Below, in pieces: positions 23,113-64,000 of a stretch of DNA of 64,000 nucleotides. Under the pieces are notes generated by a model. The model did not search any database. It was not told the DNA's origin and worked only from the letters and a program-made list of their open reading frames with translations. The stretch is from Takakia lepidozioides. Lineage: Eukaryota > Plantae > Bryophyta. The stretch is taken from assembly GCA_030704615.1 (NCBI GenBank), contig CM060732.1, forward strand, positions 4,402,001 through 4,466,000, written 5' to 3'. The position numbers and the translations under genes are program-made. Numbering within the stretch: position 1 is the first letter of the stretch; every line of letters begins with the position of its first letter.

Positions 23113-24149
23113 TAGACAAACGAGATGGCCTTGTTTGAAATAGCTCTAAGAAAGCTTGCAAGGCATAGAGCATAAAAGTATGGTTGGCACAAAATGGAAC
23201 GGGTAAGTGCGTGTAAGCCTGTGGGGCTTGCAAGTATCGAGTGAGAGAGAATGTACTCTCAACCCGTCCGTCCTTACGCCACTGCGTAAGAAGTAAAGTG
23301 AGCGTATAATCTGTAATATCCGCCATAGCTACAAAGCTATAGCTTTGATTGCCGCTCCCGTCGAGACACTGGTTATTCGGAGTCACCCCGACTCTTCCGC
23401 TCATAACTCTTCTAATTTCTTGTTCTTGTTTCTTGGAGGGAACCACCTGCATGAAATTCTCGCTCCTGATTGGCTGTTGTCTCCTTGGGTAACTTCTTAA
23501 CTTTACCCTCCTCAGTGGACATTCCCACTTGGAATGTCCACTAGGACAACACATGTGGCAAAAGTCCCCCTTTTTTGTACTCGTAAAGGGTTCCGTTATT
23601 TTTGCCCTGAATGCATTAATGGGCCCACAAATAGTTTTGGCTGATGTACCGGTTAGGTACTTTGACGGCCCAGTTTGTCCTCTTGCATGATGACACCCAC
23701 TTTTGCAATATATGCACCGCGGTGTGCTTCGCCCTAGTGGCCACGTGTTCGTTTTTAGACATGCATCCGTCTTCCCCTGTCCGCGTGGCACATTCTCCGA
23801 GTTTGACTTCCAAGCTGTCTTTTTACCCGCCTGCCACTTTTCTGACGTTAACCCGCATCCACCTGTCACTAACCCTATGGACTGTGCAACCCGCGTGGGC
23901 TGTGTTAGGCTGTGACAGGCTGTGTCAGACTGTGACGAGGTGTGATAGGCTATGTGATGGTGTGATGGGCTGTGATAGACTGTGTGACACTGTGGTGGGC
24001 TGTGATAGACTGTGTCACACTGTGGTAGGCTATGATAGCTATGTGAACACCTGTACCTTCCGCCCTGGCCATACACACTCGACTTAATGACAAGTGCTCC
24101 ATACTCCGTTGGTATCACCGGTGCAGCCCGTGACTGTTTCTGTGTTTCA

Positions 24150-44619: not shown

Positions 44620-46000
44620 GCGAGGAGTTGTGCAGTTCGTTGACGCTCAACGTTGGTGCATGAACAAAGTCATCAATACTCAAGTTCATCCTCAGCCTCT
44701 TCAGGTAAATGTAATACAGATGCTTGCACGGATATTACTTCGTCCCCGTCTTTGCTACCATCAACGAAAAGTCCTTACAATTGCAAGCCGGCTCCACTCC
44801 GATTGTAATTGGGTATACGTCGTCGCGTACAACTGAGCCGGCCGTTGCCATCCATTAAAAACACCCAAACCGGGTGCGGGTACGTCCCGGGAGCTTTGAA
44901 TAGTACATGCGATCCCAAGAACATTGACAATCCGAGTCTCATTCAACTTGTTGGGAGGGTGTCGTCTCTTCATTTTTTCAAAGCGCATGGTGGGATATGC
45001 GGAATTGTCCAATCAAGCACTGGATCTCACAGTCTGCAATGGCTGGGTCTGAGGGACTGGAAATGGATGGGCCGGGACATCTGTGCGTTGCACCATTCGA
45101 TATCTCGTGTTTGAAGAAAAGATTCGCCTCATTCTGAGAGAGGTTGCAACCCTGTGCAACAGCTAGACGCCCGGAGGCTCTGGCATTCCCTGAATCCCGT
45201 ACTTGGGATTGCCAAATACACAAGTCATTATGTCGTGCCTACAGAACCAAAACGTCTGCGTCACCGCTGCAAAAAATCTGGCAGTCATAAATTGCCCGAT
45301 GAAACCAAGGTGAAGGTACAACACCGTGGGTTCTCCGAATCATCTCACCCCAGCGTGCTCTCATATCCACCCGGATGGCGCGACACTTCCCTCGAAATGC
45401 GGGCATTGTCCTTGCAATTCTCCACTGTGACTCTGACACTCTTGTCTCGACAATGGGTGTGTTGTACTGCGTGACGACAGATGGCTCGGAATGTTCCTCA
45501 GGCACGTGCCATGTGCTCAAAGAATAGGACGATCTTGAACGTGCAGGGCTTGCGGTGCTGGACGAGACGTCCTGAGGCAACATTACGGGACCACGAGGAA
45601 ACGTGCGAATATTCTTGTCAGCTCACAAGGAATCCTCTTCTCCGCCAGGTGACTCGTCAAGTCGTCGTCTCACTGGACGGGTGTGAACATCTCCTTCCAA
45701 GTGCTCGCCTCTTCGAAGTAATGGCGTGTCCCGAAGGCCATCTCCGCAAGGATGCTGCCCACTTTCAAGGATTCTTGGATCTGGAGGCACTCCGCATCAG
45801 CATTTCCTACCTGTCGGCCCAAAGCCCCACTGTTTCCTTTCAAGAACTCGTTGTATCTGGATTGCTGCATAAATTGACTCACAATGTCTTTCGTTGTGGC
45901 AGGATGATGTCCACCAGATGCCGCCGCAGAGGAGCAAGCCATGAAGAATGCACTGATTCGGCCATGTTTGTTGTCGGATGTCGGTGTTCAGAGTCCAGAC
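44620..46000 (-). pseudogene. Mutator-like transposase C-terminal part (catalytic-E motif and SWIM finger), degenerate
   Basis: PTTNMAESVHSSWL at ~45935-45977; QQSRYNEFLKG; PACNCKDF...YPCKHLYYIYLKRL...DDFVHAPTLSVNE at ~44635-44790. Confidence 0.75.
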
Positions 46001-46528
46001 ACATTCCTGCCGATGCCACATTCCAGGTTAGAAGCAAGTTACAAATCATGACTACCACAATATTGTAGGGGACGTGAAATTGTTCAACTCACCTGACGTA
46101 TATAGTCGCCGAACTAGAGGAAACGATAATGCCACCATGCAAGCCAACTAACCATTGCTCCCCGTCTGATTTCTAAACAACTAACATTGTCCACCAAGCC
46201 CGTATACGTGCAAACTCTGTCTCTGCATCATCCAAAGTGGGAGCAGTCTTCCACGCAAGACACATGGAACTTTTCATAGATGTTGGACAACCATGTTTGG
46301 ATGCCGCACCCTCCCTCGCCTCCCCTCCTACCCCCCCCCCCCATACATTAGCTCCTCAATCACCATCACCAAGTACTAAACACACTACTTGTGGTGCGAA
46401 AAGAACCCTGTATGCTATACCTAAGATTAACTCATTAAGAGTTTGAGTCAAAAATAGAGCTTCTATTAAAGTATGATGCTTAATATCAACAATTTGTGGA
46501 ATAGCTTATAGCCAACATTGGTACAAGT

Positions 46529-46968
46529 AGTCGTGCGCATACATATCGCTACACAACTACATCGCTGCCCAAAACCACACAACACATGTGCACAGCACAA
46601 GCTCATGCGAGCTCACAAAGCTGAAGCATAAACTCATGCATATATAACCTCATCACTCAAATACAAGTCAAGCCAAGTGCACCCCACGCCATGGGGAATC
46701 CACACTACGGCGCCATAGCTAGGCGCGGTGAGGCTCAACTCGAGAAAGATGAGCCTCCCGCGCTTGCCGTGAAGATAACCACTCCAGGGCCTAAATCTGC
46801 CTTGACCCCTGGATTGACACTTGGGCCAATCCCAAATGTCAATATGTAAAAGCTAGCTATTTCCTAGCTAGTTTCACACTAGTGGTAAAATAACTTGACA
46901 GCTGTCGTGCGCATACATATCGCTACACAACTACATCGCTGTCCAAAACCACACAACACATGTGCACA
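46529..46968 (-). repeat. Repeat Y, two copies (46529-46594 and 46903-46968) flanking the 3' copy of X
   Basis: gtcgtgcgcatacatatcgctacacaactacatcgctg(c/t)ccaaaaccacacaacacatgtgcaca occurs twice. It is absent next to the 5' X copy. Confidence 0.93.
46594..46900 (-). repeat. Terminal repeat X, 3' copy
   Basis: Identical by inspection to 57883-58189. Starts TGTCAAG in element sense. Confidence 0.95.
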
Positions 46969-46969
46969 C

Positions 46970-47085
46970 CACACACTAGTATACCACTAGTCTACCACTA
47001 GTCCAGCCACTAGTCCAACCACTAGGCTACAACTAGTCAGTCACTAGGCTGCCACTACGCTGCCCACTATGGCAGTCACTAGTCC
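46970..47085. repeat. Short tandem CACTAG(T) repeats in the element 3' region
   Basis: About 10 units of 10-12 bp (ccactagt-). Confidence 0.8.
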
Positions 47086-47350
47086 ACACAATCGCCCCCC
47101 TAGCTGGTGCTTAGGTCCCTCTAAGTCCAGGTAGCCACAAGATGTGATAGTGACCATAGCCTCACTAAGTCCTCCACCACTATCCCTACTACACTCAAAC
47201 TCGATAGATCAAGAGGCCGGGTGCAAGAGTTGCCCCATCGTTAGTCGCCGTCTTGCAACCTGTGAACTTGAGCTTGGGATCTCATGTATTGACTCCTATG
47301 AGCTTGGCCTCCCATGTCTTGTTAGCTGCCTCCAGTCATGTCCACTGCCA

Positions 47351-47977
47351 CTATCCCAAGCAGTGTGGACACAACCAATCTCCGTCAGGAACCTTCTCAA
47401 GAGGTGGTGTCAAGCATCCCATATGCCAACCCCTTGAGCATCGATCACACACCAGCATGGTGGCTGCCCCTTTGGCAGACCCACAGAGCATGCACCTCAA
47501 ACCTGCAGGTACCACTGCCAAGTTTGGGTCAACTCTGCCATCGACATTGGGAAGGTGACATGGCGCACAATTACGCACATGGTCCTTCCAAGTCATGCCA
47601 TCCCGACCCTCCAAGATCAGGACCCCTGAGGGCAACACCTCTCGAACCCTCAGAATAACACGCCCTGCAGTAACATCCAGAGTCGTAGGAGCAGTCTGCT
47701 GCAAATAAACATAGTCACCAGGGCTAAACCTCCGAACCCCAGGACGATATCCTCCACCACGTATAGTGGCATACCTCAACGTATCACGGTGCTGTGCAAT
47801 GGCAAGGTTCTCAAAAGCCATGGGCATGACTTTCTTGAACAACTCTGCACGCTGATCACATGCACGTACCCACACGTCCGGATCGTCAAGGTTAAGGACT
47901 TGAGCAGTGTCCCTACGAATGGCTGCAGGCAAATCCGGCTCTCGGCCAAGAGAAGAAATATGGTGAGAAGGAGGCAA
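47351..47977 (-). CDS. Integrase C-terminal extension with PHD finger
   Basis: FSPGDYVYL, then CMLCGSAKGAATMLVCDRCSRGWHMGCLTPPLEKVPDGDWLCPHC (C4HC3 PHD). Continues pol after a frameshift at SPYF/LGREP. Confidence 0.92.
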   Translation of the reverse strand: MPPSHHISSLGREPDLPAAIRRDTAQVLNLDDPDVWVRACDQRAELFKKVMPMAFENLAIAQHRDTLRYATIRGGGYRPGVRRFSPGDYVYLQQTAPTTLDVTAGRVILRVREVLPSGVLILEGRDGMTWKDHVRNCAPCHLPNVDGRVDPNLAVVPAGLRCMLCGSAKGAATMLVCDRCSRGWHMGCLTPPLEKVPDGDWLCPHCLG

Positions 47978-50324
47978 GTGATGCTTGTTTGCTGAACCTG
48001 TAGCCCATGGCTAACCAAGGAACCTGAAGATCCCAATCTCCTAGGTGTCCCTTCTGCAAGCCATACTTGCGCAAACCCCTCTTCACCGTCTGAACAACTC
48101 TCTCTGCTAAGCCATCGGCCTCAGGATGATCCCGAGAAGTGGTGCGGTGGTCTATCAAGGCTTTATCACACAAAGCCTGAAACTCCCCCAAGAACTCTCT
48201 CCCTTGGTCCGTGAGTACCTCAGCTGGAGCACCAAATCGGCTAAGCACACGATCCAAGAATGCATACGCAGCCCCCTCACTAGCCTTGTCAGGCAATGGA
48301 ACCAACTCAATCCACTTGGAGAAGTGCTCCACCATCACCAACACATATCTGTGGTGGCGCATAGTCAGTGGCAACGGTCCTGCGAAGTCAAGACTCCACC
48401 TGTAGCCCAATCCCATGATTGGTAAAGGATGCAACTGTGGTGTAGGGGCGTTGAATGAAGCACGCACCCTGTCACACACCATGCACCTAGCCACAAACTG
48501 TTGCACCTCTGTATGCATACCACGCCACCAATACTGCCCCTGCAGTAAACTGTGAGTGCGTCGCACTCCAAAATGCCCCAACTCCTCATGGGCATGCCGC
48601 ACTAACCGTGCACGCTGTGTGGGGTGAGGCACAATCCTCACCCGACCATCCTCCCACACTCGAAGTAGGTGTATCCCCTCCCACTTGAACCTCTTGGCTC
48701 GTTGCAGGATCCGATCCCTCTCCCTGGCAGTCACAATGGCTGCCGTGTCTCCCGTGCGGAGGTAGTCCAACACAGCCGAATCCTCATGTATATCTCTGGC
48801 ACCACCTAGCTCATCACTAGCCTCAGGGTCCTCAGACACTCCGTCTACAGTCATCCCTGTTGTAGGTCCAATCTGACCTCCCGATGCCAAGATACACAAA
48901 AATGCAGATGCGTGCCATCCCGGCACCATCTCCTCGTCCGTCTCACCATGCCACCGAGCTCCAGTGTCATCCTGCTGGCTCATGCATGGATTGCGACTCA
49001 ATCCATCCGCATCCCGATTGACCAAACCCGGTCGATGCACAACCTGAAAGTCATACTCCTGGAGTATAAGTGCCCACCGTGCAAGCTTCCCCGTAAGCTT
49101 GTCTGACTCCATCAACCACTTGAGTGGCTGGTGATCCGTGACAAGGGTGAAAAGATTGCCGTATAGATAGCACCTGAAGTGTGCCACGGCCCACACTGCA
49201 GCTAAGCACTCTCCCTCATATGAGCTGTACTTAGCCTCTGCAGCGTTGTTCGAGCGGCTAGCGTAAGCCACTACGAACTCTCTTCCCTCATCATCCACCT
49301 GTGTGAGCACCGCTCCAAGCCCCAGCATGCTCCAATCCGTATGCAGCTGAAAGGGACGCCCCCTGATAGGTCGTCTCAAGATAGGCGCCGAGGTCAACCT
49401 CGCCTTGAGCTCTTGAAAAGCTCGTTCCTGCTCATCTTCCCACTGCCACTCCTGGTCCACCTTGGTCAGCTTGGTTAGAGCCTTTGCAATGGTACTAAAT
49501 CCCTTGACAAACCGTCTATAATAGTTTGCCAACCCCATGAAAGCTCGAACTCGGCTCACATCCGTGGGGCGTGGAATTTGTGCAATGGCCTCTACCTTAG
49601 TCTGCTGTACCCCCAATCCTCCAGGATATATCATGTGACCCAGATACTCAATCTGGTTGTGGAAAAACTTGCACTTCCCCGGATGCAACTTCAATCCGTG
49701 CGCTCTCAAGCGCTCCAATACCACCTGAAGGTGTCTCTCATGCTCCTCCATCGTAACACTAAAGATGATGATGTCATCTATGTAGCACCGAGCAAAGTCC
49801 ACCCCTGCTAGAATCCTATCCATGACTCTCTGAAACTCTGCAGGAGCATTCTTAAGCCCAAATGGTAAGAACCGCCACTGATATAGGCAATCCTTGCCGT
49901 GCTCATTGATCCCCCAGAATGCCGTCTTCTGCTTGTCCGCCTCCTTGATTGGCAACTGGTGATATCCGGATCGTAAATCCAAAGTGCTAAAGGCCTTAGC
50001 ATGCCCGATGGCATCAAAGATCTCCTCTGGTGTTGGCATGGCATACTTATCGGACTTGGTCTGACGATTTACAGGCCGGTAATCACCGCACATACGTCTC
50101 TCCGTCCAATTGCCATAGACATCCTTCTTGGCTGGCATCACTGTGGCTGAAGCATACTCTCCACCAGAGAGCTCCACCAAACCTGCCTCCCAGAGATCTT
50201 GAGTCCTCATCTGAATCAAAGACCTCTCCATGTCACTGTATCTATAGGGTCTCCGAAAGATTGGCGTGTCAGTGGCCAACTCAATACGGATCTCTTGACC
50301 CTTCAGTGCTCCCAAGTCCTTCAA
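47913..50324 (-). CDS. pol: Reverse transcriptase, RNase H and DDE integrase
   Basis: RMCGDYRPVN, LDLRSGYHQL, LPFGLKNAPAEFQR, YIDDII; LHTDWS..YSSYEGE..TDHQPL; H..GHFG..C..C; WSLDFAGP, VLTDQGREF, DGLAERVV (D,D35E). Confidence 0.96.
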   Translation of the reverse strand: MKDLGALKGQEIRIELATDTPIFRRPYRYSDMERSLIQMRTQDLWEAGLVELSGGEYASATVMPAKKDVYGNWTERRMCGDYRPVNRQTKSDKYAMPTPEEIFDAIGHAKAFSTLDLRSGYHQLPIKEADKQKTAFWGINEHGKDCLYQWRFLPFGLKNAPAEFQRVMDRILAGVDFARCYIDDIIIFSVTMEEHERHLQVVLERLRAHGLKLHPGKCKFFHNQIEYLGHMIYPGGLGVQQTKVEAIAQIPRPTDVSRVRAFMGLANYYRRFVKGFSTIAKALTKLTKVDQEWQWEDEQERAFQELKARLTSAPILRRPIRGRPFQLHTDWSMLGLGAVLTQVDDEGREFVVAYASRSNNAAEAKYSSYEGECLAAVWAVAHFRCYLYGNLFTLVTDHQPLKWLMESDKLTGKLARWALILQEYDFQVVHRPGLVNRDADGLSRNPCMSQQDDTGARWHGETDEEMVPGWHASAFLCILASGGQIGPTTGMTVDGVSEDPEASDELGGARDIHEDSAVLDYLRTGDTAAIVTARERDRILQRAKRFKWEGIHLLRVWEDGRVRIVPHPTQRARLVRHAHEELGHFGVRRTHSLLQGQYWWRGMHTEVQQFVARCMVCDRVRASFNAPTPQLHPLPIMGLGYRWSLDFAGPLPLTMRHHRYVLVMVEHFSKWIELVPLPDKASEGAAYAFLDRVLSRFGAPAEVLTDQGREFLGEFQALCDKALIDHRTTSRDHPEADGLAERVVQTVKRGLRKYGLQKGHLGDWDLQVPWLAMGYRFSKQASLASFSPYFFSWPRAGFACSHS

Positions 50325-50482
50325 ACTGAAGGCAAAGCAATTCCTGTAAGCCCTCAGGAACCGCCGTATACGTCGTCTCTCTCCTCCGGTGACAATGGGT
50401 CCAATGTCAGGCTCCCAATTGTCCTCCGTAACTGCAACCTTAAGTCCAGTGGGCTTAGAGGTAGAGGACGCGTCCGTGGTTG

Positions 50483-53400
50483 CTATGCTGCAACCTCTTG
50501 AGCAGTACTCCCTACCTGCTCAGTCAATGACAAGGCCTCATCCTGCCCCATCATCTCATCCTTGAGGACCTCCTCAACCCGAGAAGAATCCCCAACCTCA
50601 TCCATCACAGCCGCCTTGGCTGCCAACTCCCTCTGAACCTCGAGCACCTCCCACGTGTGCCATGGATGCATGCACCCCGTGGTCCTCATATGCTCGCCCC
50701 CACTCACTGCCTGTACCGTCTCGGTAGGCAGAGAGACCATTGAGGGAAGTGTACTCCGCACTCTGCGTTGCTCAGCCAGAGCCAAGCTGATAATCCAGGT
50801 CAAGCAATTGAGATCCATTGCTTGCCCCAACACTTGACGACGTGATGCCTCAGAAAGAGACGACACCGCCGTGGTACCAGTGGTAAAACCCATTGCCCGC
50901 TCACGCTCGTCAGCATTAGGCTCCACTAACTGCTGCAACTGAGCATCCCACAGGAGGCCAGGTCCACTATCCCGGAAAGCATGCGATCCTGGGAAGCTGA
51001 GCAGTGTAGGTAATGCTGCTCGTGGTTGACCCACCTTGTTGACCACTGCCAAAGGCGAACGGTCATCGTGTCTCACACGTTGAGACTGCCTCCCTGTGTC
51101 CAGAATGTTATCCACTGTGAGATGTGCTGGCCGCTGCACCCCATCAAATGCACGCTTGAGCAGTGCGGGTGGCATCATGTTAGTCCACCATAGCCGTGGA
51201 CGATGAGCCCGTGACCCCACTGTAGCTGCATCTAGCAACACTGCTGACCCAAGCCACGACCGGACTTGATGCACACTGGCCATCACCCTGGCCCGAGAAT
51301 CGCCCATCAGTGGCACATTCTCCAAGATGTATGCTGGAGATACAGCTTGATGAAGCTGCAAGTGGCGCAAAACCCGCACCATCTCCCAAAACAGACCCGA
51401 CCTCGAGTCTCGCAATCCATTGCCATGCCCGGCTGATGAATGCCCTTGGCAGGGCCAACCTGCCACTACCAGATCAATGGAGCCAACCCGCTCCAAATCC
51501 TGCGCCCCCAGCAACGAAATGTCTGCTGGCAAGGCCTGCTGATATCCACGAATTGCAGACACCGACAACAACTCAGGGTACCGCTGCACCAACTGAGCAA
51601 CATGGCGAAGTGAAACGCGTCGTGCAGTCTCATCCCTCTCCACATACAGGTAACGCCGAACTCGTACACCTGCCTGTAACACAGCAGCCAATCCGGTGCT
51701 GATCCCGCCAAACAAGTCCAGAAGACAAATGCCTTCATCCGGAGACTGCCACACAATAGGTGTGGTGTCCAATGGAGACAATTGAGGTGGTCCTGGTGCA
51801 ATCCCCACACTCTCCTCCTCTCCTGACGGTACAAAAGCCTCCACCCAGGCTTGTTGCACCCGTCGATCAGCATCCCGCTGCAAATCCTTGCTCGTGCCCC
51901 ACAATGGAGTCTGAGCAACCATGGTAGGCAACTCCGCCATACCATACATGTCATCCTGCTCTCCCGGAGGTGGTACATCCTCTGAATGAGCATTGCCCTC
52001 AAGCAACTCTCTAGGCCAACTCACTGCCGCTGTGAATGCTGCTAGTGTCGGCATCTTGCCTCGCTGGGCAACCGCAACTCCTCCTATGAACGTCACAGGG
52101 AGCACACGCCGGCCCTCCCCTGACTGCCATGCAGGCCTATAGGAAGCTGACTCCTCCCAAAAATCCAGGGTGAAGCCCATGGGGTACAACACTGCCCCAC
52201 CAACCAGGACATCGTATGAGACTGCGTCTGTCACAATGGCCTTGGCTCGCATCACTGAGCCATCTGTAGGGTGATCCGGCCGTAGTCTGATAGCCAACTC
52301 ATGCCGTGTCATGCCCCGAGCCTGCTCCGATCCTCCCAGAGACGTCTGTATCTGGAAAGGACAAGGCTCCATATCCGCCTCCGTGAGGCCCAAGCCTGCA
52401 ATAGCAGCTCTGCCCAGCATCAGTGGCTGAGCTCCCGAGTCCAACAAGACTCGCAGTGGCCGGTACCTCTTGCCTGCCGGTCCACTCAAACAGAAAATGC
52501 CATCCTGGTTGTCTAACATGACAACTCCAGGTGTCACCATGGCGCGCTCAATGGCTGGCCTAGCTGGCAGCTCCATCAACCTGGCAGCTGCAGCTTGCCA
52601 TGGCGCCGCCGTGGCAGTCTTGACCCTCAAATCCGAGGATCCCTCCGGCACTACACCTCCCACTATCTCCGCAGAAGATGAAGTAACCTCCCCACTCTCA
52701 CAGAGTGTAGCTGCCAGCCTGAACACCTCAGCTGGTCTTACCCCCGGCGTCGCAATCATGGTAGCCGAGAACAATGGAGCCTGGCACACAGATGTGGCCG
52801 CTCCTAACAGCACACTAGCTGCCGTAGCCTTGGCAACACTAGGTAGTGGTGCTGCCCGTGTAGCTCTCCCCAATGGCATAGTAACCTCCGCCTCGGTAAC
52901 AGTCGGGCGAGAACTAGGTGCCATGGATGGCGTCGACACTGTCTCCGCCAATGTGAATGACTGAGGAAGCCTAGCCTGACGGCTTGCCTCCCCACGCTGT
53001 GGATCCAACTCCACCTCTGCACCTCGTGGCTCAGGAACTCGTGCTGCTCCTCGAGTCACGGCTGCAGCAGACTCCACCTGCACTAGTGGTAGTGCTGCTC
53101 CACACATGAATCCCATGCCTCCCATATCTCCTCCCTCAGGAGCAGGAGGTGGACCATCCGGCCTTAGAGCCGGTACCACCTGAGCTGTAGCCATGGCAGC
53201 GAGCCTCTGCTCTAGCTGCTGAAGCCGGTTGGCCATGCCTTGGTCAACACCCTGACCTCCGCGTCCTTGGCCACGTTGAGCTTGCCCTTGGCCTGCACCT
53301 CGTGGCTGGCCACCTCGTCCTCTCTGGGCTGCTCCACCTCGCCCCCGGCCACCATTGTTCCCTTGGAACTGGCCTGGGCGCAACTCAGGATGCAAACTAT

Positions 53401-53581
53401 AACACTGGGCCTCTCCATGCCCGTGCTTGCCACAATGCCCACACTGCAACTGTGCAGGCTGTGCATGTGCCGACCCTTTGCCTCCCTCTGGGCAATCCTT
53501 CTTGACATGGGGTCCTCCACATGTCCAGCACACCACATCCGCCCGTTGTTGGCCAGCAAATGAAGGGAGAGACCCCTGCAT
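50483..53581 (-). CDS. Zinc knuckles, aspartic protease and C5-cytosine DNA methyltransferase
   Basis: CWTCGGPHVKKDC and CGHCGKHGHGEAQC knuckles; protease VLLDSGAQ. DNMT motifs in canonical order: I LLDLFGGISTG, II YLYVERD, IV VAGWPCQGHS, VI ILENVP, VIII AHRPRLWW, IX ERERAMGF, X QVLGQAMDL (~50760-51735). Confidence 0.93.
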   Translation of the reverse strand: MQGSLPSFAGQQRADVVCWTCGGPHVKKDCPEGGKGSAHAQPAQLQCGHCGKHGHGEAQCYSLHPELRPGQFQGNNGGRGRGGAAQRGRGGQPRGAGQGQAQRGQGRGGQGVDQGMANRLQQLEQRLAAMATAQVVPALRPDGPPPAPEGGDMGGMGFMCGAALPLVQVESAAAVTRGAARVPEPRGAEVELDPQRGEASRQARLPQSFTLAETVSTPSMAPSSRPTVTEAEVTMPLGRATRAAPLPSVAKATAASVLLGAATSVCQAPLFSATMIATPGVRPAEVFRLAATLCESGEVTSSSAEIVGGVVPEGSSDLRVKTATAAPWQAAAARLMELPARPAIERAMVTPGVVMLDNQDGIFCLSGPAGKRYRPLRVLLDSGAQPLMLGRAAIAGLGLTEADMEPCPFQIQTSLGGSEQARGMTRHELAIRLRPDHPTDGSVMRAKAIVTDAVSYDVLVGGAVLYPMGFTLDFWEESASYRPAWQSGEGRRVLPVTFIGGVAVAQRGKMPTLAAFTAAVSWPRELLEGNAHSEDVPPPGEQDDMYGMAELPTMVAQTPLWGTSKDLQRDADRRVQQAWVEAFVPSGEEESVGIAPGPPQLSPLDTTPIVWQSPDEGICLLDLFGGISTGLAAVLQAGVRVRRYLYVERDETARRVSLRHVAQLVQRYPELLSVSAIRGYQQALPADISLLGAQDLERVGSIDLVVAGWPCQGHSSAGHGNGLRDSRSGLFWEMVRVLRHLQLHQAVSPAYILENVPLMGDSRARVMASVHQVRSWLGSAVLLDAATVGSRAHRPRLWWTNMMPPALLKRAFDGVQRPAHLTVDNILDTGRQSQRVRHDDRSPLAVVNKVGQPRAALPTLLSFPGSHAFRDSGPGLLWDAQLQQLVEPNADERERAMGFTTGTTAVSSLSEASRRQVLGQAMDLNCLTWIISLALAEQRRVRSTLPSMVSLPTETVQAVSGGEHMRTTGCMHPWHTWEVLEVQRELAAKAAVMDEVGDSSRVEEVLKDEMMGQDEALSLTEQVGSTAQEVAA

Positions 53582-54651
53582 TGAGGTCCTCTCTGCCCTT
53601 CCCTGAGCTTCACCTGAGCCCCCTTGTTGCCTTGAGCACGTTGAGGTAGTGGTTGGCTAGGAGCACCACTACCCCGTGGTGTCTCCTTAGCAAATCCCAC
53701 CATGACCACTCGTTCCTCCACCATGTTGAGCTCTATCCGCTCTGCCAGCAAAAACACATTTGCTAAGGTGGGTTGGGCCGCTTGTAGGAGAGTTGCATCC
53801 CGCACCCTTCTCCTCAGCTCCTTGTCCAATATCCCATACCAGAATTGGACTGCCTGAGCTTCCGTAACCCCTTGGGTTACATTTATCAAGCGCCTCATGC
53901 GAGTGAAAGCCTCCCTCAAGCTCTCGGTCGGCTTCCGTTGGAACTCTTGCAAGCTCCGCAACTTCTCTGTCCTCACCCCTTGGTAGTTCCCTCTCAACTC
54001 TTCGAAGAACTCCACAACATGGTTGAAGGCAGGCACGGGTGCTAGTGCTGGTGTGGTAGTGGCTTGGGTGGACGTCGTAGCTACTGTACCACCAGTCCCA
54101 CTGCTGCTTGCTGAAGCTGCCGGTGCAGCGGTAGGTGTAGCCACTGCCCTCGTGGCTCTAGTGCCCCTAGTGATGGAGACATAGTCGGGTGACCAGTACA
54201 TCCTCCACTCCTCAATCTCAACCTCATGCCCCCGCCTGAACTCATGGTAATCATCCATAGGCGGCCCCTCAAGGTGCTGAAACAGCCCTTTCCATGCCAT
54301 GAACGGCGTAAATAGTTGTGGATTGCGCATTTGCTGCAAATCACACCAACTATCAAACTCTTGGATAAAATCATCCAACTCAATGGTGCCCACCACCCCA
54401 GAGTACCTTCGTGGCCCCTTGGTAGCTCCATACATCTCCTCCATTGTGTCCCACAATAATGGCAAAGAAACAACTTGCACCGCCGGTATGAGCCCTCCTG
54501 ATTCACAATCCGAATCAGAACCTTCCGTGGAAGACACAGGAGGTGAAGGTGGCCTAAACCGCACACCTCGTCTCGTGTACCCACTAGTATCGCTAGTGCT
54601 CGAACCGGCACTGTCCCCAGCAACTAGTGGCACCTCCGTGTTGACACTCAA
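53212..54651 (-). CDS. gag: Gag (capsid-like) of the DNMT retroelement
   Basis: ELDDFIQEFDSWC, LQEFQRKPTESLREAFTRMRRL..AVQFWYGILDKELRRRV (Retrotrans_gag-like). The true frame probably shifts into the next ORF at a G-run near 53620. Confidence 0.85.
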   Translation of the reverse strand: MSVNTEVPLVAGDSAGSSTSDTSGYTRRGVRFRPPSPPVSSTEGSDSDCESGGLIPAVQVVSLPLLWDTMEEMYGATKGPRRYSGVVGTIELDDFIQEFDSWCDLQQMRNPQLFTPFMAWKGLFQHLEGPPMDDYHEFRRGHEVEIEEWRMYWSPDYVSITRGTRATRAVATPTAAPAASASSSGTGGTVATTSTQATTTPALAPVPAFNHVVEFFEELRGNYQGVRTEKLRSLQEFQRKPTESLREAFTRMRRLINVTQGVTEAQAVQFWYGILDKELRRRVRDATLLQAAQPTLANVFLLAERIELNMVEERVVMVGFAKETPRGSGAPSQPLPQRAQGNKGAQVKLREGQRGPQCRGLSLHLLANNGRMWCAGHVEDPMSRRIAQREAKGRHMHSLHSCSVGIVASTGMERPSVIVCILSCAQASSKGTMVAGGEVEQPREDEVASHEVQAKGKLNVAKDAEVRVLTKAWPTGFSS

Positions 54652-54929
54652 CCGGTCATGAACATGTCCCTAACCCCCTCTCCACAAGGTAACCGGGTAG
54701 AGAACCTGTTGCGGCTTATGGTTTGGAATACTAAGTTCCTAACATAGCCTACACCTGAACTTGCATGACCATGGGAATATCATGAAGATACTCCTCAAAC
54801 CGCCCTCCATGAGCTTCAAAATTCGGCCTTCCAGACCACTGCCAGTCCTTAGTCCACCAGTGCCTCCACGAGTCAGCACAAGCCATCCACAGGTCAACAC
54901 GGGCCACCACAGACCAGCACAGGCCCACA

Positions 54930-56330
54930 CAGCTCACTGGTCACAGCCATCACAGTCCCACAGGCCACTGGCACAGCCTGTCACAGCCCTCACAGCTCGT
55001 CACAGCCTCAAAGGCCTCAGGCACAGCCTATCACAGCCCCTCACAGCCCGTCACAGCCCCAAAGGCCTCAGGCGCGGCCTGTCACAGCCCCTCACAGCCC
55101 CTCACAGCCCAAGGCCATGGGCACGGCCTGTCACAGCCCCTCACAGCCCGTCACAGCCTCAAAGGCCTCAGGCACGGCCTGTCACAGCCCATCACAGCCC
55201 CAAAGGCCTCAGGCACGGCCTGTCACAGCCCCTCACAGCCCGTCACAGCCCCAAAGGCCTCAGGCGCGGCCTGTCACAGCCCCTCACAGCCCTCACAGCC
55301 CCAAAGGCCATGGGCACGGCCTGTCACAGCCCCTCACAGCCCGTCACAGCCTCAAAGGCCTCAGGCACGGCCTGTCACAGCCCCTCACAGCCCGTCACAG
55401 CCCCAAAGGCCATGGGCAGGGCCTGTCACAGCCCCTCACAGCCCGTCACAGCCTCAAAGGCCTCAGGCACGGCCTGTCACAGCCCCTCACAGCCCGTCAC
55501 AGCCCCAAAGGCCTCAGGCAGGGCCTGTCACAGCCCCTCACAGCCCATCACAGCCCCAAAGGCCTCAGGCACGGCCTGTCACAGCCCCTCACAGCCCGTC
55601 ACAGCCTCAAAGGCCTCAGGCACGGCCTGTCACAGCCCCTCACAGCCCGCCACAGCCTCAAAGGCCTCAGGCACGGCCTGTCACAGCCCCTCACAGCCCG
55701 TCACAGCCCCAAAGGCCTCAGGCACGGCCTGTCACAGCCCCTCTCAGCCCGTCACAGCCCCAAAGGCCTCGGGCACGGCCTGTCACAGCCCCAAAGGCCA
55801 TGGCACGGCCTGTCACAGCCCCTCACAGCCCGTCACAGCCGCAAAGGCCTCAGGCACGGCCTGTCACAGCCCCTCACAGCCCATCACAGCCCCAAAGGCC
55901 ATGGGCACAGCCTGTCACAGCCCGTCACAGCCCCACAGGCCTCAGGGCACAGCCTGTCACAGCCCCGCACAGCCCCACAGGGCACAGGGCACAGCCTGTC
56001 ACAGCCCATCACAGCCCATCACAGCCTCAAAGGCCTCAGGCACGGCCTGTCACAGCCCCTCACAGCCCATCACAGCCCCAAAGGCCATGGGCACAGCCTG
56101 TCACAGCCCGTCACAGCCCCACAGGCCTTAGGGCACAGCCTATCACAGCCCCAAAAGGCCACTGGGCACAGCCTGTCACAGCCTGACACAGCCCATCACA
56201 GCCCCACAAGGCACAGGGCACAGCCTGTCACAGCCCATCACAGCCTGTCACAGCTTGCCACAGCCCGTCACAGCTCGCCACAGCCTGACACAGCCCGTCA
56301 CAGCTTGCCACAGCCTGTCACAGCCCCACA
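54930..56330. repeat. Minisatellite (~51-bp unit built from 10-bp TCACAGCCC subunits) in the element 5' leader
   Basis: aaaggcctcaggcacggcctgtcacagcccctcacagcccgtcacagcccc repeated more than 20 times with variants. Confidence 0.95.
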
Positions 56331-57882
56331 CATGGCCGCTCTGGCAGTTTAGCCATTTCTCCAAGGGGTTTAGCCACGCCAAGCTAGGGTTTGTGTCTCT
56401 TGGACTCTAGGCTTCTTTCCACCGAGCTATGGTGGCTGTGAGGAAATCAGCAAGGTATCCTTGCTCTTTCGGCTCCCACACACCACCATAGTAGCCCTAA
56501 GCCATGAGGTGGTTGCCACAAACCAAGCCTTCTTTCTCACTTAGCCTACCCAAACACGCCACTAAACTCAATGGCAAACAACCAAGCCCTGCTGGTTCCC
56601 AGCCCTTGTGAGCACTCATTCAAGCACTCTCCTTGGCCATAGCATCTGTCTTAGAGCCTCTTCCAGCCCCCTACACCTGCTGCTTCAAGAGTTGCGCTCC
56701 CTTCAAGCTTGAAGTTGAAACCCCAACTCACATAGGCCCTACAAGTGCTTTTCTTTCACTCCAAGTGGAAACCAGCCCTAGACCTTCCGTTCTAGCTCTC
56801 TAAAGCTTGAAAACAAGAGCCTCAATGGGCTGAAGGCATGCTCCACACATGCCCCACTCTCACCATAAAAGAATCAGCTCATTTGCTTCATTTCTTGCAC
56901 CCACAAACCTGAAAATACAAGCTTCAGCATGCTGAAAGCATGCTCCACATGCCCTACAGGGAAACCAGCCCCTTCCTTCCTTTCTTGCACTCCCACACCT
57001 GAAAGTGCAAGCCTTCACCAGGCTAATAGCATGCTCCATACATGCATTGCCCTCACATAAGGGAAGTCAGCCCTTCCCTCTTCCTTGCTTGCCCTCCAAG
57101 CTTGAAGATGGAAGCTTCAATGAGCTGAATACATGCTCCACACATGCAACCTCTTCACACAAGAGATATCAGCCCCCTATCTTGGCTCCTTGGCTCCTTG
57201 ATGCTCTCTAAGACAAGACTAAGCACTCCATAGCCTTTGCCAAGCTCCTGAAACCCTAAGGCTTACATTTCCAGCCACAAGACACTTCTCTTGTGGTGCA
57301 AGAGCTCTTCTTCCAAGCTCTGTAACCCTAGGTGCACATTCCATGGCCTTGCCGCACCTCTTAGCTCCTGTTCCAGCCCTGCTCTCGCCATGACAAGAGC
57401 CCTCTCAATGCTGAAGCTCGAGATTGAAACCCAATCTCACCATACTCCACAAAGTGCACTGATTTGCCCCAAGCCAAATCAGCCCTTTCGCTTGGTCTTG
57501 CAATCCTTCACACAATGACAGCTCGCATTCCCAAGTCCAGTTCTCAGCTTTGCCACCAAAGCCACTATAACCTGCTCTTGACTGGTCCTCTTCCCAATCG
57601 TGCTTGCTCATGCATGTACACAATCTGAAACCATCAAGGTGCTCTGGAATTACCTACAGTATGGTGCTTTCATCTCTGAAGCTGAAGATCGAATGCCAAG
57701 GTTTACCACCTCGTAACCCACATCGCCTCCGCTTCTAACAACCAAGAGCTCCACGGTGCTCCTTGCATAACAACTTGGTTTCTCTCATTCTCAAGCAAAA
57801 ACCACAAGTGCTACAACTAACTCGTATCTAGCACTCATAGATACGAGCTCATCTTTCTCGAGTGATAAAGAGGAAGAATACA

Positions 57883-58189
57883 AGCACAAGCTCATGCGAG
57901 CTCACAAAGCTGAAGCATAAACTCATGCATATATAACCTCATCACTCAAATACAAGTCAAGCCAAGTGCACCCCACGCCATGGGGAATCCACACTACGGC
58001 GCCATAGCTAGGCGCGGTGAGGCTCAACTCGAGAAAGATGAGCCTCCCGCGCTTGCCGTGAAGATAACCACTCCAGGGCCTAAATCTGCCTTGACCCCTG
58101 GATTGACACTTGGGCCAATCCCAAATGTCAATATGTAAAAGCTAGCTATTTCCTAGCTAGTTTCACACTAGTGGTAAAATAACTTGACA
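57883..58189 (-). repeat. Terminal repeat X, 5' copy
   Basis: Identical to 46594-46900. Contains a TATATA box-like sequence (~57929-57934) and several stem-loops. Confidence 0.95.
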
Positions 58190-58249
58190 AGGTTAAATAG
58201 AGTAGCCTCTAAGTAATATGTGCAACTGTGAAACTGAAAAGAAGCTAAA

Positions 58250-60228
58250 CTACATGCCTTCCAACTCGACCATTATGAAATCTGGTGCCACGAGCCTGGT
58301 TGTGTATTGCGACAAGCTCTGCAGAAAATGGAACCCACAAGATCTCTCATTGGCTTCCATTGGAACATTTGGGTCTTCCCCGTACACCCTTCGGACTGCA
58401 GCCCAATTTGCTTGTGCGTTGTCCGCCATGAAACCACAGAAATTTGGCGGGCCAATCCCGCCCTGGCCATCTGTTCGTTTATTCCCTGCCAAAGAAGCAT
58501 CTCCAATTGTGTGTCCTCCCCTTTCATCTCACAAATAGCAATTGTCATTAGTATCCTGCAGTGGGGATCGTAGACATGTGCACAATCGTCACCCATTGGT
58601 GATTTGCAATTCGCTTGATATGGTCGAACATGACCCAACTGTTTGACAAGTCTCCACTCGTCATCCGGTGGACCAGATCCACGCCGCCGCCAGGCCCACA
58701 CGATGACATTTTGAATATGAAACAATGATCTGCCTCACTCCCTTGTCCTGGAAACCGACTTCCATGAATGAAGTCATATCCACATCGTCGCTTCACCTCC
58801 AAAATGGACTGCATATCCGAGCCGAGCCCAATTTTCTGTTTGCAGTCCAGACAATGTGGTTTCGGACATTCGGTGAACAGACGTGGGACACCGACTCCAG
58901 CAATGCCTCCATTTCCTTCTCATCGAGAGGAACTCTGTCGGAGCCATCTTCTGACATTATTCTGCCCAATGCCATCTTATGGGCGGCCTGCAGCTGTATC
59001 TGTTTCGGTTTGGTACCAGGTCTCAACTTCACCTCCTCCTGAATGAGCTGCTCTGCCTCCTGGGCAGCCTCCCGCGAGTTCCCCCTCGCCAATTTGTGAC
59101 AGTGCACACCAATGTGTATGCAAGCTTGTGTGAGGTGTGGCAAAAGGTGGCACACATAGTACTGCTTGGCATTACAAATAGACATGCAATGCAGTGGTTC
59201 TTTGTAATGCGCGCACTCAAATGTGGAGTTTGGAACCTTTTTCTAAGCTCGAAATGGTTGAGGAGTTGTGCCTGTCCAATCCGTCTCGTTCCTATGACCT
59301 TTGGATTTATAGTGGAAGCAGGTTGGGGAGAAACACCGCAGTGTGCCCGCACACCATCGAGCATCTTTATGCTGGTGGTTCTGGTGACGCACCAAGGGTG
59401 ACCGTCATGTTTTCTATCCATATCTGTCAACATTCCGGACGCTCTGGAATTGTCCGTTCAAGGAGGGAACTCAAAAAAAAAATTGTTGTCGACGTCTGGG
59501 GGAAGATGTGTCACAGATTTGATTTTGAACTTGTTGTAGTCCAGCGCAGTCAACTCGGAATGGTGTCCCTCCGTGTGCAACCCTTGCAGAATATCAAGAA
59601 TGGATCGAGTTGCTGAGCTCGTATTGGGAATATGAATCCTTCCTCCGCTGATGTCCATTGAGGACTTGCCTGATCTCCAGGATGATCTTGGAACTTCCAT
59701 GACCTCATCTGAGTCCGACAGGTTGTGAACAACCTGGTTCTCGCTCATCTTCATTGATGGCGGAGACTTCGTATTAACTTCGTTGCGGAATTCTGTCTTT
59801 GAGGTACCAACTTTCAGATTCGCAGATTCTTTCGTGGAAGGCGGTAGGAAAGAAGGCGCATTTGGTGGGAAAATGAAGTCCCAAACAGCCTTGTATATGA
59901 CGTTGTCCAATGGTGGAACTCGCCATTCCCTACCGTTGCCAAAATCATCGTGGAGCACAACAATACTTTTGACTACAACTCCATTTGAATCCTTCCTTTC
60001 CTCCTCCAGGAATACTGACCCCGGTTTCAGCTGGTATCGGACGCAGAGATATTTCTCCATAACCCGACAGATTCCCCCTGTGAACCGAAATGTAGCTCTA
60101 TGCTCGTGAGGAGGGCAGTACACTATTGCGCTCGAGTTTTCAGCCATGGGAGATGTGCATAGAAGACTGCGAGCACGGCGTTCGGGCAAGCGCCCTGGGA
60201 GAAGCGGGGATGCAGCGAGGCAAAGCAA
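58250..60228 (-). pseudogene. Mutator-like transposase N-terminal and catalytic part (WRKY/GCM-like Zn finger, DD motifs, CxxH)
   Basis: DGHPWCVTRTT...CNAKQYY..CIHIGVHCH; WVMFDHIKR; HVYDPHCRILMTIAICEMKGED; GFMADNAQANWAAVRRVY; ERSCGFHF. Frameshifted. Continues at ~46000 on the other side of the retroelement. Confidence 0.72.
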
Positions 60229-61559
60229 TGTAGGGCCGATATTTCCGAGCGACGAAGCCTATTCATGAATTCGGCGAGACCACACTCCCAAAAATCCACT
60301 GTCAAAGTTTTCATGAACCTGGTCTCCGAAATGCGGCCCCTGGCCTTTCCGCAATAACTGCCAACGGTATGCAGTCAGAAGATTGCAGACTTGTGCAGGT
60401 GCCCTGCGCAAACCAATAATTGCGGCGTCTGATGAGAAGCGTGGGGGGGGGGCGAGTGTGCAAGCACCTTCCCGATGGATAGAGGGAATTGAAAGAGATG
60501 TGGCATTCCCCAGGGTCTGAGTACAAGATTGAGTGCTGGACCCTCTCAGGCAAAATTCAACATTGCACAAAAAGTGGAACTTTGGTTCAAAGGAAGATTT
60601 TTATTCATATAATGAGCTGTGACAAGTATGCATGCCCTCACAAGCCGAGGTAAGCCAAAGGTATGCATGCAATCCATGTTGAGGTAGGTTGGGAATTTGC
60701 TGTCGTGTTGCACTGTTGTCACCAAGAAGCTCGAACCTCGATTGGCCTCTCAACAAGCTCATGACTGACAGGGTGTCGGTAGGCGAAGACAATGGATGCA
60801 GCCCGCTCCCCTTTGGTGTAGTGGATAACAGTGTCATGTCCTCCGATATATGCACCATCGTAAATGGAGATCTTTGTTGTGGAGACTCTATGTCCATAAG
60901 ACTCATCCTCGTAGCTTATGAGAATTTCCCCATAGACTGTTTGCGAGGGAATCCTCGGAGGCCTATACGTACACCCGATGCAATCGTCGTAGGTCCACTG
61001 GCATTACCTCCAATGATACAAGAAGGTCGTGCGGCTTTTGGGGATGTCCTATGTAGACGGATATTCCAGATCGACGATTCGCAGGCACCAGAGCCGCGCA
61101 AGCCCGTCCCTACGAGGCTGATCGTGGAAGCCAGGCTGGTACTCAAGAGCGGACAGGCTCACCTGCCTCTGCTGAGACTGGTCTATCCAATCCTGCAGGA
61201 GTATAAAAATGTCCCCTGACTTGGGGCGAGAAGTTCCACGGGGTGAGACCGCCGTTGGGGCAATTGCCAGGATCCCGACACGCCATCGCCAAATAGTGAA
61301 AGGGCTGCCAGGAAGCAAAGCGGGAGCGCCGGGAAGCAGACCCGGGAGTACTCAGTATAGGAGGAGAGGAAGTGGGAGGAGCGGAGGAGAGGAATTGGTC
61401 TTGCTGGCCAAGTTTGAAACGCAGTGGGTGTAGGGGGAAATTTGGACAACTGGCAAACAAATGCACAACATTTAATATGTCCGTACCCGGGGATGAGGCG
61501 CAACATTTACTTCGTGGTCGGCTCCATAAAACCACGTCTCGCAAGAGAGCTCTCGGGGG

Positions 61560-63150
61560 GAGATAGCGCCAAGTGTCACACCAAGTCTATCCCGCCGAAT
61601 TTTCATCCAGGGGGGTTGGATGAAGTCGTCTCGGGGGGAGAGGGCTCCAAGTGGCTCCCAAATTTCATCCCCCGGATGGAAATACGATGCCGAATTTCCA
61701 TCCAGGGGTGTTTGGATGAAGTTGTCTCGGGGGGAGGGTGCGACAGGTGGCACACTAAGTCCATCCCCTGGATGGAAATACGGCGCCGAATTTCCATCCA
61801 GGGGTGTTTGGATGAAGTTGTCTCGGGGGGAGGGTGCGAAAGGTTGCACACCAAGTCCATCCCCTGGATGGAAAAATGATGCCGAGTTTCCATCCAGGGG
61901 ATGAAGTCTGTGCGCCAGCTGCCCCCCCCCCCCCTCCCCCCGAGACGACTTCATCCTGTGCCCCCTTGAAGAAAAAACGGCGCCGAATTTCCATCCAGGG
62001 GGTGAAGTTTGTGTGCCAGCTGCCCCCCCTTCCCCGAGACGACTTCATCCTGTCCCCCCTAGATGGAAAAACGGCGCCGGATTTCCATCCAGGGGATGAA
62101 GTCTGTGCGCCAGCTTGCCCCCCCTCCCCCGAGACGGCTTCATCCAGAGCCCCCTGGATGGAAATACGGCGCTGAATTTCCATCCGGGGGGGATTGGATG
62201 AAGTCGTCTCGGAAAAGACACAGGGCCTGCTGGCATACCAATTTCATCCCTTGGATGGATATTCGGCGCTGAATTTCCATCCGAGGGGGATTGGGTGAAG
62301 TCGTCTCGGTCGGACATAGGCCTTGTTGGCATACCAATTTCATCCCCTGGATGGAAATTCGGCGTCGTATTTCCATCCAGCGCGGTGCGATGGAACCCTC
62401 ATGTCCCATTTTTAGCCATTTTCCCCCCTGGATGGAAATTCGGCGCCGTATTTCCATCCAGGGGGTGTGGATGAAGTCCTGTCAGGGGGACGGAGGGGCA
62501 CCTGGCGCACGAAGTACACCCCCTTGGATGCAAATTCGGCGCCGAATTTTCATCCAGGGGGTCTGGATTCGTCTCGTGGGGAGGGAGGGGCACCTGGCGC
62601 ACGAAGTCCATCCCCCTGGATGGAAATTTGGCGCCGTATTTCCATCCACGGGGTCTGGATGAAGTCGTCTCGGGGGGAGGGAGGGCCACCTGGCACACGA
62701 AGTCCACCCCCCTGGATGTAAATTCGGCGCCGTTATCCATGGGATCTGGATGAAGTCATCTCGGGGGGAGGGAGGGGCACCTGGCGCACGAAGTCCACCC
62801 CCCTGGATGGAAATTTGGCGTCGTTATCCACGGGGTTTGGATGAAGTCATCTCGGGGGGAGGGAGGGGCACCTGACGCACAAAGTCCATCCCCCTGGATG
62901 GAAATTCGACGTCGTATTTCCATCCAGGGGGTATGGATGAAGTCGTCTCGGGGGGAGGGAGGGGCACCTGACGCACGAAGTCCATCCCCCTGGATGGAAA
63001 CTCCGCGCCGTATTTCCATCCAGGAGGTCTAGATGAAGTCGTCTCGGGCGGAGGGAGGGGGACTTGGCGCACGAAGTTACACCGCCTGGATGGAAATACG
63101 GCTCCGAATTTCCATCCAGGGGGTGTGGATGAAGCCGTCTCGTGGGGAGA
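61560..63150. repeat. Tandem array (~90-100 bp unit) built on a ~40-bp palindrome CCCCTGGATGGAAATACGGCGCCGAATTTCCATCCAGGGG
   Basis: About 16 units with gatgaagtcgtctcgggggga. Unit orientation flips at about 61900-62160. Confidence 0.9.
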
Positions 63151-64000
63151 GTTTTCGAGCTGTCACAATGATGTCCGCCGGCCATGCATTAATGTGCCGC
63201 CGTCGTCTCTTTTGAACCCACATGGTCCTGCACGGATTCCATGGTGGCTTCCCGGCTACGTCTGGAGCCCTTGATGTGACGGGTGGATGAAGTTCCACGC
63301 CCAGGCTGCCACCACGCATTAGCCGCGACATTTCTGTTATTTGGACTTATGCCGCGTCGAGAAGGGCGAGGCTCTGCCGAGAGAAACCCCAGTTCTCGAC
63401 CACGGTGCAAACTAAAACCTTTATACTACGGTCCGAAACCAAAGTCTTGCATGGCCAAACTGAAGCTACAGCAGGAGATCCCCTTGTCTTGCTCACAGCC
63501 CGCGCCAACTGAAGCCGAGCATTCTCAGGTGTGCCCCTGCTTCTTCCACTTTTCAGGGATTTTGCTGCTGCTTTTGCGGGCTTTTGCTTTCAGGGCTTTG
63601 AGGGCTTTTGCTTTTGCTTTTGCTGTTGCGTACTCTGCCTACTCTCACAACTCTGCCTCGTTTTCACTTTGCCTTTCGATTGGATGCCAGGGCCCTCCTG
63701 GTGGGGATGACAGAGTGAAGACGATCGTGACACGGTGGTGGTTTCCTCCACACCTCCAAGTCGTTGCAAGGGAGTTTTCCGCGAGACGTGGCAGGCAGCC
63801 TCTGGCATTCAGATTTTTGGGTCTCCAAAGGGGGGCCGAGGGGGCATCGACGAGGCCCTTCTTCCATTCGCAGGTGGACAAGACGCCCTGGACAAGGCTT
63901 ACTCACAGATAGCAATTTGGCCACAGTCGGGAGGTGGTGCGTAGGCTACAACACTCGAAATGAAAGGTGCAGGGCGATGGAAAGGGCTAGGCCATCCGCC

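Follow-up and report, generated by a model that had tools for sequence, protein, structure and literature searches.

A Ty3/Gypsy retrotransposon of Takakia lepidozioides with a DNMT3-like methyltransferase on the Gag side of a putatively leaky stop codon and circle-like terminal repeats

A 64-kb stretch of the genome of the bryophyte Takakia lepidozioides (assembly GCA_030704615.1, contig CM060732.1, positions 4,402,001 to 4,466,000; the window) contains a Ty3/Gypsy retrotransposon of 11,660 bp (~11.7 kb), which spans 58189-46530 on the minus strand. In Gypsy order, the element encodes Gag, a protease, a DNMT3-like methyltransferase (DNMT), reverse transcriptase (RT), RNase H, an integrase and a PHD finger. 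We favour the interpretation, which we hold to be moderately probable, that this is a recent, frame-broken Gypsy copy of a kind in which the DNMT would be packed in bulk into the particle through likely readthrough of a stop codon, and would there methylate the element's own cDNA. The capture of a DNMT by Gypsy elements is already known. New are the land-plant range, the recent activity, the leaky-stop layout and the circle-like terminal anatomy.

A Pfam scan of the span returned DNA_methylase (E 2e-12), RVT_1, RNase H, the zinc finger and core of the integrase, and PHD (E 2.8e-11); the gag match was weak and fell below the cut-off (Retrotrans_gag, E 0.0017). An earlier, sequence-only reading had described a Gypsy polyprotein at 47351..54651, in which a complete DNMT catalytic domain lies between protease and RT and a C4HC3 PHD finger, rather than a chromodomain, follows the integrase; it had named PF00145 and PHD profiles as the matches to look for. 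The domains and their order were borne out by the scan. The single polyprotein was not: this span consists of four overlapping minus-strand open reading frames (ORFs), with a conserved stop after the DNMT. Its limits also had to be extended, as the element really reaches from 46530 to 58189.

By its enzymes the element is a Gypsy, with the order gag-PR-RT-RH-INT and a DDE integrase, and by its ends it is non-canonical. It has TG...CA termini and short target duplications (the duplications seen in relatives, and imperfect in the window copy), but instead of two complete terminal long terminal repeats (LTRs) with a polypurine tract (PPT) immediately 5' of the 3' LTR, the layout is A-coding-PPT-B-A-B. 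Membership of DIRS/PAT was rejected, since an rve integrase is present rather than a tyrosine recombinase and relatives show target duplications. The element is not a chromovirus either, as Pfam finds only the PHD, and no chromodomain, after the integrase. The reading frame of the window copy is interrupted at three places, near 53580, 50475 and 47950; at each of them, copies in runs X1, X2, X5 and X12 differ in length by one base. As assembled it is thus defective, which may reflect decay, a defect mobilised in trans or an assembly error. At 54444-54669, where relatives begin gag with an MVxTRS-like sequence, there is no in-frame ATG, and the same is true of the related loci L001 and L004; a non-AUG start is possible in these three copies. 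Contigs matching the 12 kb in runs X1 (110,577) and X2 (139,544) show that many variants exist, and are not a measure of copy number.

The DNMT domain has motifs I, II, IV, VI, VIII, IX and X in canonical order (LDLFGG, 51721-51704; YVERD, 51646; WPCQ, 51457-51446; LENV, 51325-51314; AHRPR, 51208; ERERAMG, 50908; GQAMD, 50827), and its catalytic residues are intact, just as the sequence-only reading had stated. The closest solved proteins are human DNMT3A/B/C, with DNMT3A as the best match (E 1.7e-11), while DRM2 and M.HhaI rank lower. The domain aligns to DNMT3A at the S-adenosylmethionine-binding positions, the catalytic Cys, the Glu of ENV and the RxR Arg pair of motif VIII. An AlphaFold model of the domain (pLDDT, the predicted local confidence score, 93.5) retrieved DNA-bound DNMT3A (6f57, E 6.4e-19) as its top Foldseek match, and matches in the ESM Atlas were DNA_methylase clusters only. 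Sequence and modelled fold therefore identify a DNMT3-like C5 cytosine methyltransferase, for which enzyme activity is predicted. We rejected the possibility that the domain belongs to a host plant DNMT3 gene, as there is no DUF3444 match in Pfam and there are no introns. Host plant DNMT3 is described as a multi-exon gene with a C-terminal DUF3444 (PMC6453930).

Hundreds of relatives carry the DNMT. Those with a host name come from Marchantia polymorpha, M. paleacea, Riccia sorocarpa, Calypogeia fissa, two Sphagnum species and Closterium, the closest of them from liverworts and peat mosses, so that the domain is common to relatives in liverworts, mosses and algae. Among the matches listed (67; 37; best 120 of 209) there were no vascular plant names, and no Klebsormidium-named proteins were among the matches listed. 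A profile search yielded 631 cluster representatives at E up to 1e-30, a number in part inflated by the integrase columns of the profile. The DNMT is placed variably in 232 related proteins: it lies between RNase H and integrase in 124, 43 proteins end after protease-DNMT, 21 combine DNMT and RT in a single ORF, 41 are DNMT-only fragments and 3 have other arrangements. The large sister lineage with the DNMT between RNase H and integrase (P0042-P0232, L051) also has a PHD. One copy of 52% identity (P0251) is labelled as coming from a bacterial metagenome-assembled genome; by identity it stands among plant-type elements, and its label is probably due to binning contamination.

The DNMT is under purifying selection in these relatives. 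By the Nei-Gojobori method, the ratio of nonsynonymous to synonymous substitution rates (dN/dS) of the DNMT is about 0.1-0.2 between lineages. The least saturated pairs give 0.14 (L027/L029, dS 0.25) and 0.13 (L027/L035), and the window against the moss-like group gives 0.07-0.09 at a dS of 2.3-2.8, which is near saturation. Among decayed copies of the moss-like group the ratio is 0.7-1.1. The main groups are shared by the DNMT and RT trees, both of which set the RH-DNMT-INT group apart, and in both the window groups with Marchantia and Sphagnum-like rows (support 99). The DNMT tree was built by a quick method on a third of the RH-DNMT-INT rows, excluding all DNMT-only rows and any host DNMT3 outgroup; the RT tree (FastTree) was likewise restricted to a third of the RH-DNMT-INT rows, and L048 is a garbled long branch in it. 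The sequence-only reading correctly saw the DNMT, which turns out to be shared and selected; it overlooked that a stop with likely readthrough follows, that the frames are broken and that the terminal repeats are split.

In the window, ORF1 (Gag-protease-DNMT) closes with TAG, and CAACCA comes next. Homologues from Marchantia, Calypogeia, Sphagnum and others also keep Gag-protease-DNMT in a single ORF, which terminates shortly past the DNMT. Eighty loci were fetched, and the 41 that include both the DNMT end and the RT start served as the sample for the stop context. TAG or TAA followed by CARYYN is the first in-frame stop 5' of RT in 35 of the 41 loci (24 of 29 distinct contexts), the misses being L025, L032, L037, L044, L058 and L059, and in those 35 loci the stop stands 16-23 codons ahead of the RT start. 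Five of the fitting contexts are strict CARYYA and the other 19 read CAACCC/T. In locus L027, 2339 codons run from gag to PHD with the conserved TAG as the sole internal stop. The CARYY context is retained across lineages with saturated synonymous sites, and directly 3' of the window stop a long stem is predicted (z -3.35). UAG with CARYYA is the readthrough signal of tobacco mosaic virus (TMV), for which 6-10% readthrough is reported in stable Arabidopsis lines (PMC2754532). We infer that RT-integrase is made by readthrough of the TAG. The DNMT would therefore be about as abundant as Gag and likely forms a bulk component of the particle.

The ends of the element are arranged as A-coding-B-A-B over the whole 11,660 bp, and loci L038 and L048 have the same layout. 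The two A copies are 100% identical over 307 bp, which suggests that the insertion took place very recently. In the window, B1 runs directly into A2 through the palindrome GACA-GC-TGTC; 8 of 17 loci examined have this junction as well, one of them being L051, a member of the distant sister lineage. Just 3' of A1 lies a 17-nt stretch complementary to a site inside A, compared with a longest match of 10 nt among 1000 shuffles; a search of the window for tRNA genes was negative, and A1 is not followed by a TGG-type primer site. Self-priming has been predicted for Tcn1 elements (PMC6317226), and the 17-nt complement, together with those of the moss-like group, would agree with self-priming of this type. 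Exact 4-bp target duplications flank both long-form loci for which both ends are available (AAGG in L038, CATA in L048), and likewise the short L019 (TACA) and the rearranged L023 (CACA), while the duplication of L032 has one mismatch. Other copies in run X2 stop after B and have diverse flanks.

At the seam between A2 and B2, the end of A is followed directly by the first base past the purine tract in L018, L038, L048 and L061. In L023/L026 (one insertion) the seam retains a remnant of the primer site, and in the window it is short of ~19 and 125 bases on its two sides, that is, a bilateral deletion. These seam ends match those of a linear cDNA B-A...B-A, and the integrated form therefore reads as end-joined cDNA opened at one palindrome. 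We infer that it derives from an end-joined cDNA circle opened by the integrase. Foamy virus integrase has been reported to cleave a palindromic LTR-LTR junction (PMC1180852). For short copies that end at B1 (L005, L012, L019, L024 and L044), three origins are conceivable: both palindromes were cut, B1 recombined with B2, or the repeats collapsed during assembly.

Among solved structures, the PHD finger is closest to those of CHD4, KDM5B/A PHD1, PHF12, ATXR5 and BAZ2. PHD fingers that read histone H3 trimethylated at K4 (H3K4me3) have an aromatic cage Trp two residues ahead of the His. This position is Gly in 75 of 84 fingers of the family and Trp in one, so that nearly all lack the cage Trp of an H3K4me3 reader. 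We predict that the finger reads H3 unmethylated at K4. PHD fingers as such are already known in retrotransposons (PMC6673714; PMC9940879; bioRxiv 2021.11.30.470311). For Selgy elements a PHD finger is not supported, the word PHD being absent from the text of PMC6317226.

These features can be combined into the following model. Readthrough at a few to some tens of percent would yield many DNMT copies per RT/integrase. The RNA would prime itself just behind A1, and the plus strand would begin at the purine tract before B, resulting in a linear cDNA B-A...B-A. Its two ends would then be joined, creating the A2|B2 seam anew in each round. Opening of the circle at a single GACA-GC-TGTC palindrome by the integrase, followed by insertion, would leave an A-coding-B-A-B copy; if both palindromes are cut, the outcome would be the shorter A-coding-B. 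Meanwhile, the DNMT may methylate the extrachromosomal DNA, which would enter the genome already marked. The PHD, which likely recognises H3 tails lacking K4 methylation, may keep insertions away from active promoters. That the element packages a methyltransferase for its own DNA is a plausible reading, strengthened by the position of the DNMT on the Gag side of the putative leaky stop. More tentatively, and with somewhat less than even confidence, we suggest that the element represents an ancient green-lineage clade, still active in a land plant, whose attachment sites lie internally as an abutted palindrome, which uses an obligate circular cDNA intermediate opened by a DDE integrase, and whose circle is methylated by a capsid-level DNMT3.

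Several observations weigh against a self-methylating particle and its circular intermediate. The element has no extra CpG loss (observed/expected 0.51, as compared to 0.22 and 0.44 in two other Gypsy fragments of the window), which speaks against strong self-directed CG decay. Given the 124 of 232 proteins with the RH-DNMT-INT arrangement and the 21 with DNMT+RT ORFs, a Gag-level dosage of DNMT is not required lineage-wide. The Gypsy DNMT of Klebsormidium produced no methylation in yeast, a result that its authors judged inconclusive (PMC5890265). The CAACCC/T context of the large moss-like group departs from strict CARYYA at the sixth base, and support for the stem is uneven among relatives (z -0.6 to -6.5), with certain control windows equally low. 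At the termini, the right end and target duplication of the window copy are imperfect, and in the moss-like group the self-primer complement directly 3' of A measures 16 nt in 2 of 12 loci and 9-11 nt in 5, and is absent in 5. Moreover, a permuted A-B-A-coding-B copy, expected if the circle were cut at the other junction, was not seen in any of the 12 loci that include the start of A at the 5' end.

The lack of extra CpG loss would fit a DNMT that acts on chromatin and not on particle cDNA, be it at the target site, on the fresh insertion or, in trans, at host loci. Plant DNMT3 is described as a de novo CG/CHH enzyme on genomic DNA (PMC6453930), and in the larger sister lineage the DNMT adjoins the integrase. 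In the window lineage, however, it sits on the Gag side of the stop, apart from integrase and PHD, and we regard action on chromatin as improbable. We give slightly less credence still to the idea that the domain is retained for RNA methylation, or for nucleic-acid binding in packaging or end joining. The inconclusive yeast result, a Gag-level quantity suited to a structural role, and motif IV, which reads ECQ rather than PCQ in 85 of 215 related domains, could be explained in this way, yet the catalytic Cys, the ENV Glu and the motif VIII Arg pair align to DNMT3A, whose DNA-bound form is the best match of the fold. That the DNMT is a neutral one-off passenger, as a copy broken at three places might suggest, is effectively refuted by the hundreds of relatives with the domain, the low dN/dS between lineages, the shared main groups of both trees and sibling-copy contigs that cover the DNMT to the same degree as the RT.

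Readthrough and the circle each have a competitor of their own. Pol could come from an mRNA from which the segment with the stop has been spliced, or from internal initiation, and some Marchantia gene models (P0006, P0009, P0011) indeed connect the DNMT end to RT and omit the stop region. These are automatic models of decayed copies, however, and the frame is continuous over the stop, with the CARYY context kept between lineages whose synonymous sites are saturated; the sole long contig over the stop in run X12 (48686-50857), which we guess to be RNA, shows no joint. We therefore assign splicing and internal initiation a small chance. A more serious contender, though still unlikely, dispenses with a covalent circle: template switching or head-to-tail dimers of the cDNA would create the split ends, and recombination between B1 and B2, or collapse in the assembly, would account for the short A-coding-B copies. 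The contigs come from short reads, and B1 and B2 are direct repeats of small size that lie 340 bp from each other; recombination between the two would preserve the target duplication, and the permuted copy was not seen. Against this, the seams with a primer-site remnant or a bilateral deletion resemble end joining, and an internal palindrome that is perfectly retained needs a use.

The closest known system is KnitGypsy-Dnmt3 of Klebsormidium nitens, which de Mendoza et al. (2018) describe as a Gypsy with a DNMT3-like domain in its coding region (PMC5890265). As published, its DNMT3-like domain is intronless and non-rearranged, retains the key residues and is under purifying selection, and its Gypsy domains are combined with DIRS-like A-coding-B-A-B repeats; the same is seen in the window element and its relatives. 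Judged by that description, the window element probably belongs to the same lineage and works alike. It differs in its land-plant relatives and perhaps in the placement of its DNMT on the Gag side of a conserved, putatively leaky stop: KnitGypsy-Dnmt3 is described with a DNMT within the Pol ORF, and here the domain lies between protease and RT, ahead of the stop closing ORF1. It also has a PHD, a word absent from the text and three supplements of PMC5890265, and the text of that paper does not contain the junction palindrome, target duplications or priming sites of our family. Later papers cite KnitGypsy-Dnmt3 as the streptophyte case (PMC12344493; bioRxiv 10.64898/2026.05.21.726589). SymbioDIRS-Dnmt3 of Symbiodinium likewise has a DNMT3 within a split-repeat retroelement, and methylates CG de novo in yeast; it possesses a tyrosine recombinase instead of a DDE integrase, and its DNMT lies in the RT ORF (PMC5890265). 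The precedent that the sequence-only reading had mentioned for DNMT-carrying retrotransposons therefore exists, in a Klebsormidium Gypsy with the same repeat layout and a Symbiodinium DIRS.

Other systems share single traits. EpiLTRs/DAM-LTRs are LTR elements with a methyltransferase and a chromatin reader, but combine DAM, a DNMT4-related enzyme and a chromodomain, and are distinguished from streptophyte Gypsy-DNMT3 in the account itself (bioRxiv 10.64898/2026.05.21.726589). PHD Gypsy elements of Chlamydomonas, such as Gypsy-7a_cRei, have a PHD in the polyprotein that is linked to an intergenic insertion bias, whereas the legend shows no DNMT and two LTRs are described (PMC9940879). TMV-type readthrough uses the same UAG-CARYYA stop context (PMC2754532). 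The foamy virus 2-LTR junction embodies the same idea of an integrase opening a palindrome (PMC1180852); in the window element this junction is part of the encoded sequence, and the integrated copy would itself be a permuted circle. No report of bryophyte copies of Gypsy-DNMT3, of the readthrough or of the junction was found in the literature searched, including bioRxiv 363937, PMC11982613 and PMC6453930, although subscription papers, figures and bioRxiv supplements may mention bryophyte copies.

The role of a retrotransposon DNMT, a question left by the 2018 paper, becomes testable here, as close relatives reside in Marchantia polymorpha, a model with methylation mutants. The terminal anatomy provides a concrete model for DIRS-like repeats in Gypsy elements, namely integration from an opened circle; to our knowledge, LTR elements are not thought to need such a step. 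In addition, DNMT-Gypsy copies inflate DNMT gene counts in bryophyte annotations. The features of the window copy are listed in Table 1.

Table 1. Features of the retrotransposon in the window, in 5' to 3' order of the element.
Feature	Position	Strand	Basis or remark
Repeat A1 at the 5' end (307 bp, beginning with TGTC), probably the promoter/R portion of the LTR	57883..58189	-	100% identical to A2
Putative site for self-priming; 17 nt, fully complementary to 58043-58027 in A	57847..57863	-	shuffle maximum 10 nt
51-bp/10-bp tandem array within the 3.2-kb leader	54941..56326	.	repeat scan
gag, N-terminal part of ORF1; frame break near 53580	53212..54669	-	weak Pfam match; 53-66% identity to bryophyte homologues, which continue in a single frame
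Remainder of ORF1: two zinc knuckles (53530, 53443), aspartic protease (LDSGA 52444-52430), DNMT, stop	50483..53656	-	ORFs, motifs
DNMT3-like C5 cytosine methyltransferase domain, motifs I-X in canonical order	50776..51781	-	Pfam, structure matches
TAG stop and CAACCA (CARYYA readthrough context), then predicted long stem	50477..50485	-	sequence, folding
RT (YIDD 49784), RNase H, integrase HHCC finger and DDE core	47913..50519	-	Pfam, motifs
Integrase C-terminal region and C4HC3 PHD finger (47494-47360); frame break near 47950	47351..48010	-	PHD E 2.8e-11
Polypurine-tract-like G run, 5' of B1, not of A2	47092..47103	-	same place in L001, L027, L035, L038, L048
B1, ends GACA; final 64-70 bp recur as B2	46903..47091	-	repeat comparison
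Palindromic head-to-tail junction GACA-GC-TGTC joining B1 and A2	46897..46906	-	sequence
Repeat A2	46594..46900	-	repeat comparison
Repeat B2 at the right terminus; in this copy its final base and the target duplication are imperfect	46530..46593	-	other copies stop after B with diverse flanks

The surroundings of the element are rich in repeats. It is nested in another multi-copy sequence (44800-46500 and 58200-61500) with broken ORFs and no Pfam match, and its left flank is covered by contigs of many variants. Fragments of other Gypsy elements without a DNMT lie at 19187-20431 (plus) and 31262-32619 (minus), the former being distant from the DNMT lineage in the RT tree. At 27425-28615 (minus), an intronless MATH-BTB-BACK (BPM-like) gene with an open frame stands among repeats and is possibly a retrocopy. 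A 437-amino-acid ORF at 33516-34829 (plus) has no Pfam match and a terminal Cys-x-Cys...Cys-x-Tyr motif, which we take to resemble a SWIM finger, perhaps as a piece of a Mutator-like (MULE-like) transposase. The 51-bp leader array has an inverted relative of 70-76% identity at 23897-24034, inside an unrelated ORF, and three further tandem families, with ~52-bp AT-rich units in inverted blocks, 120-bp units and 96-bp units, occupy 1-2300, 4313-9624, 10245-11330 and 61600-63200.

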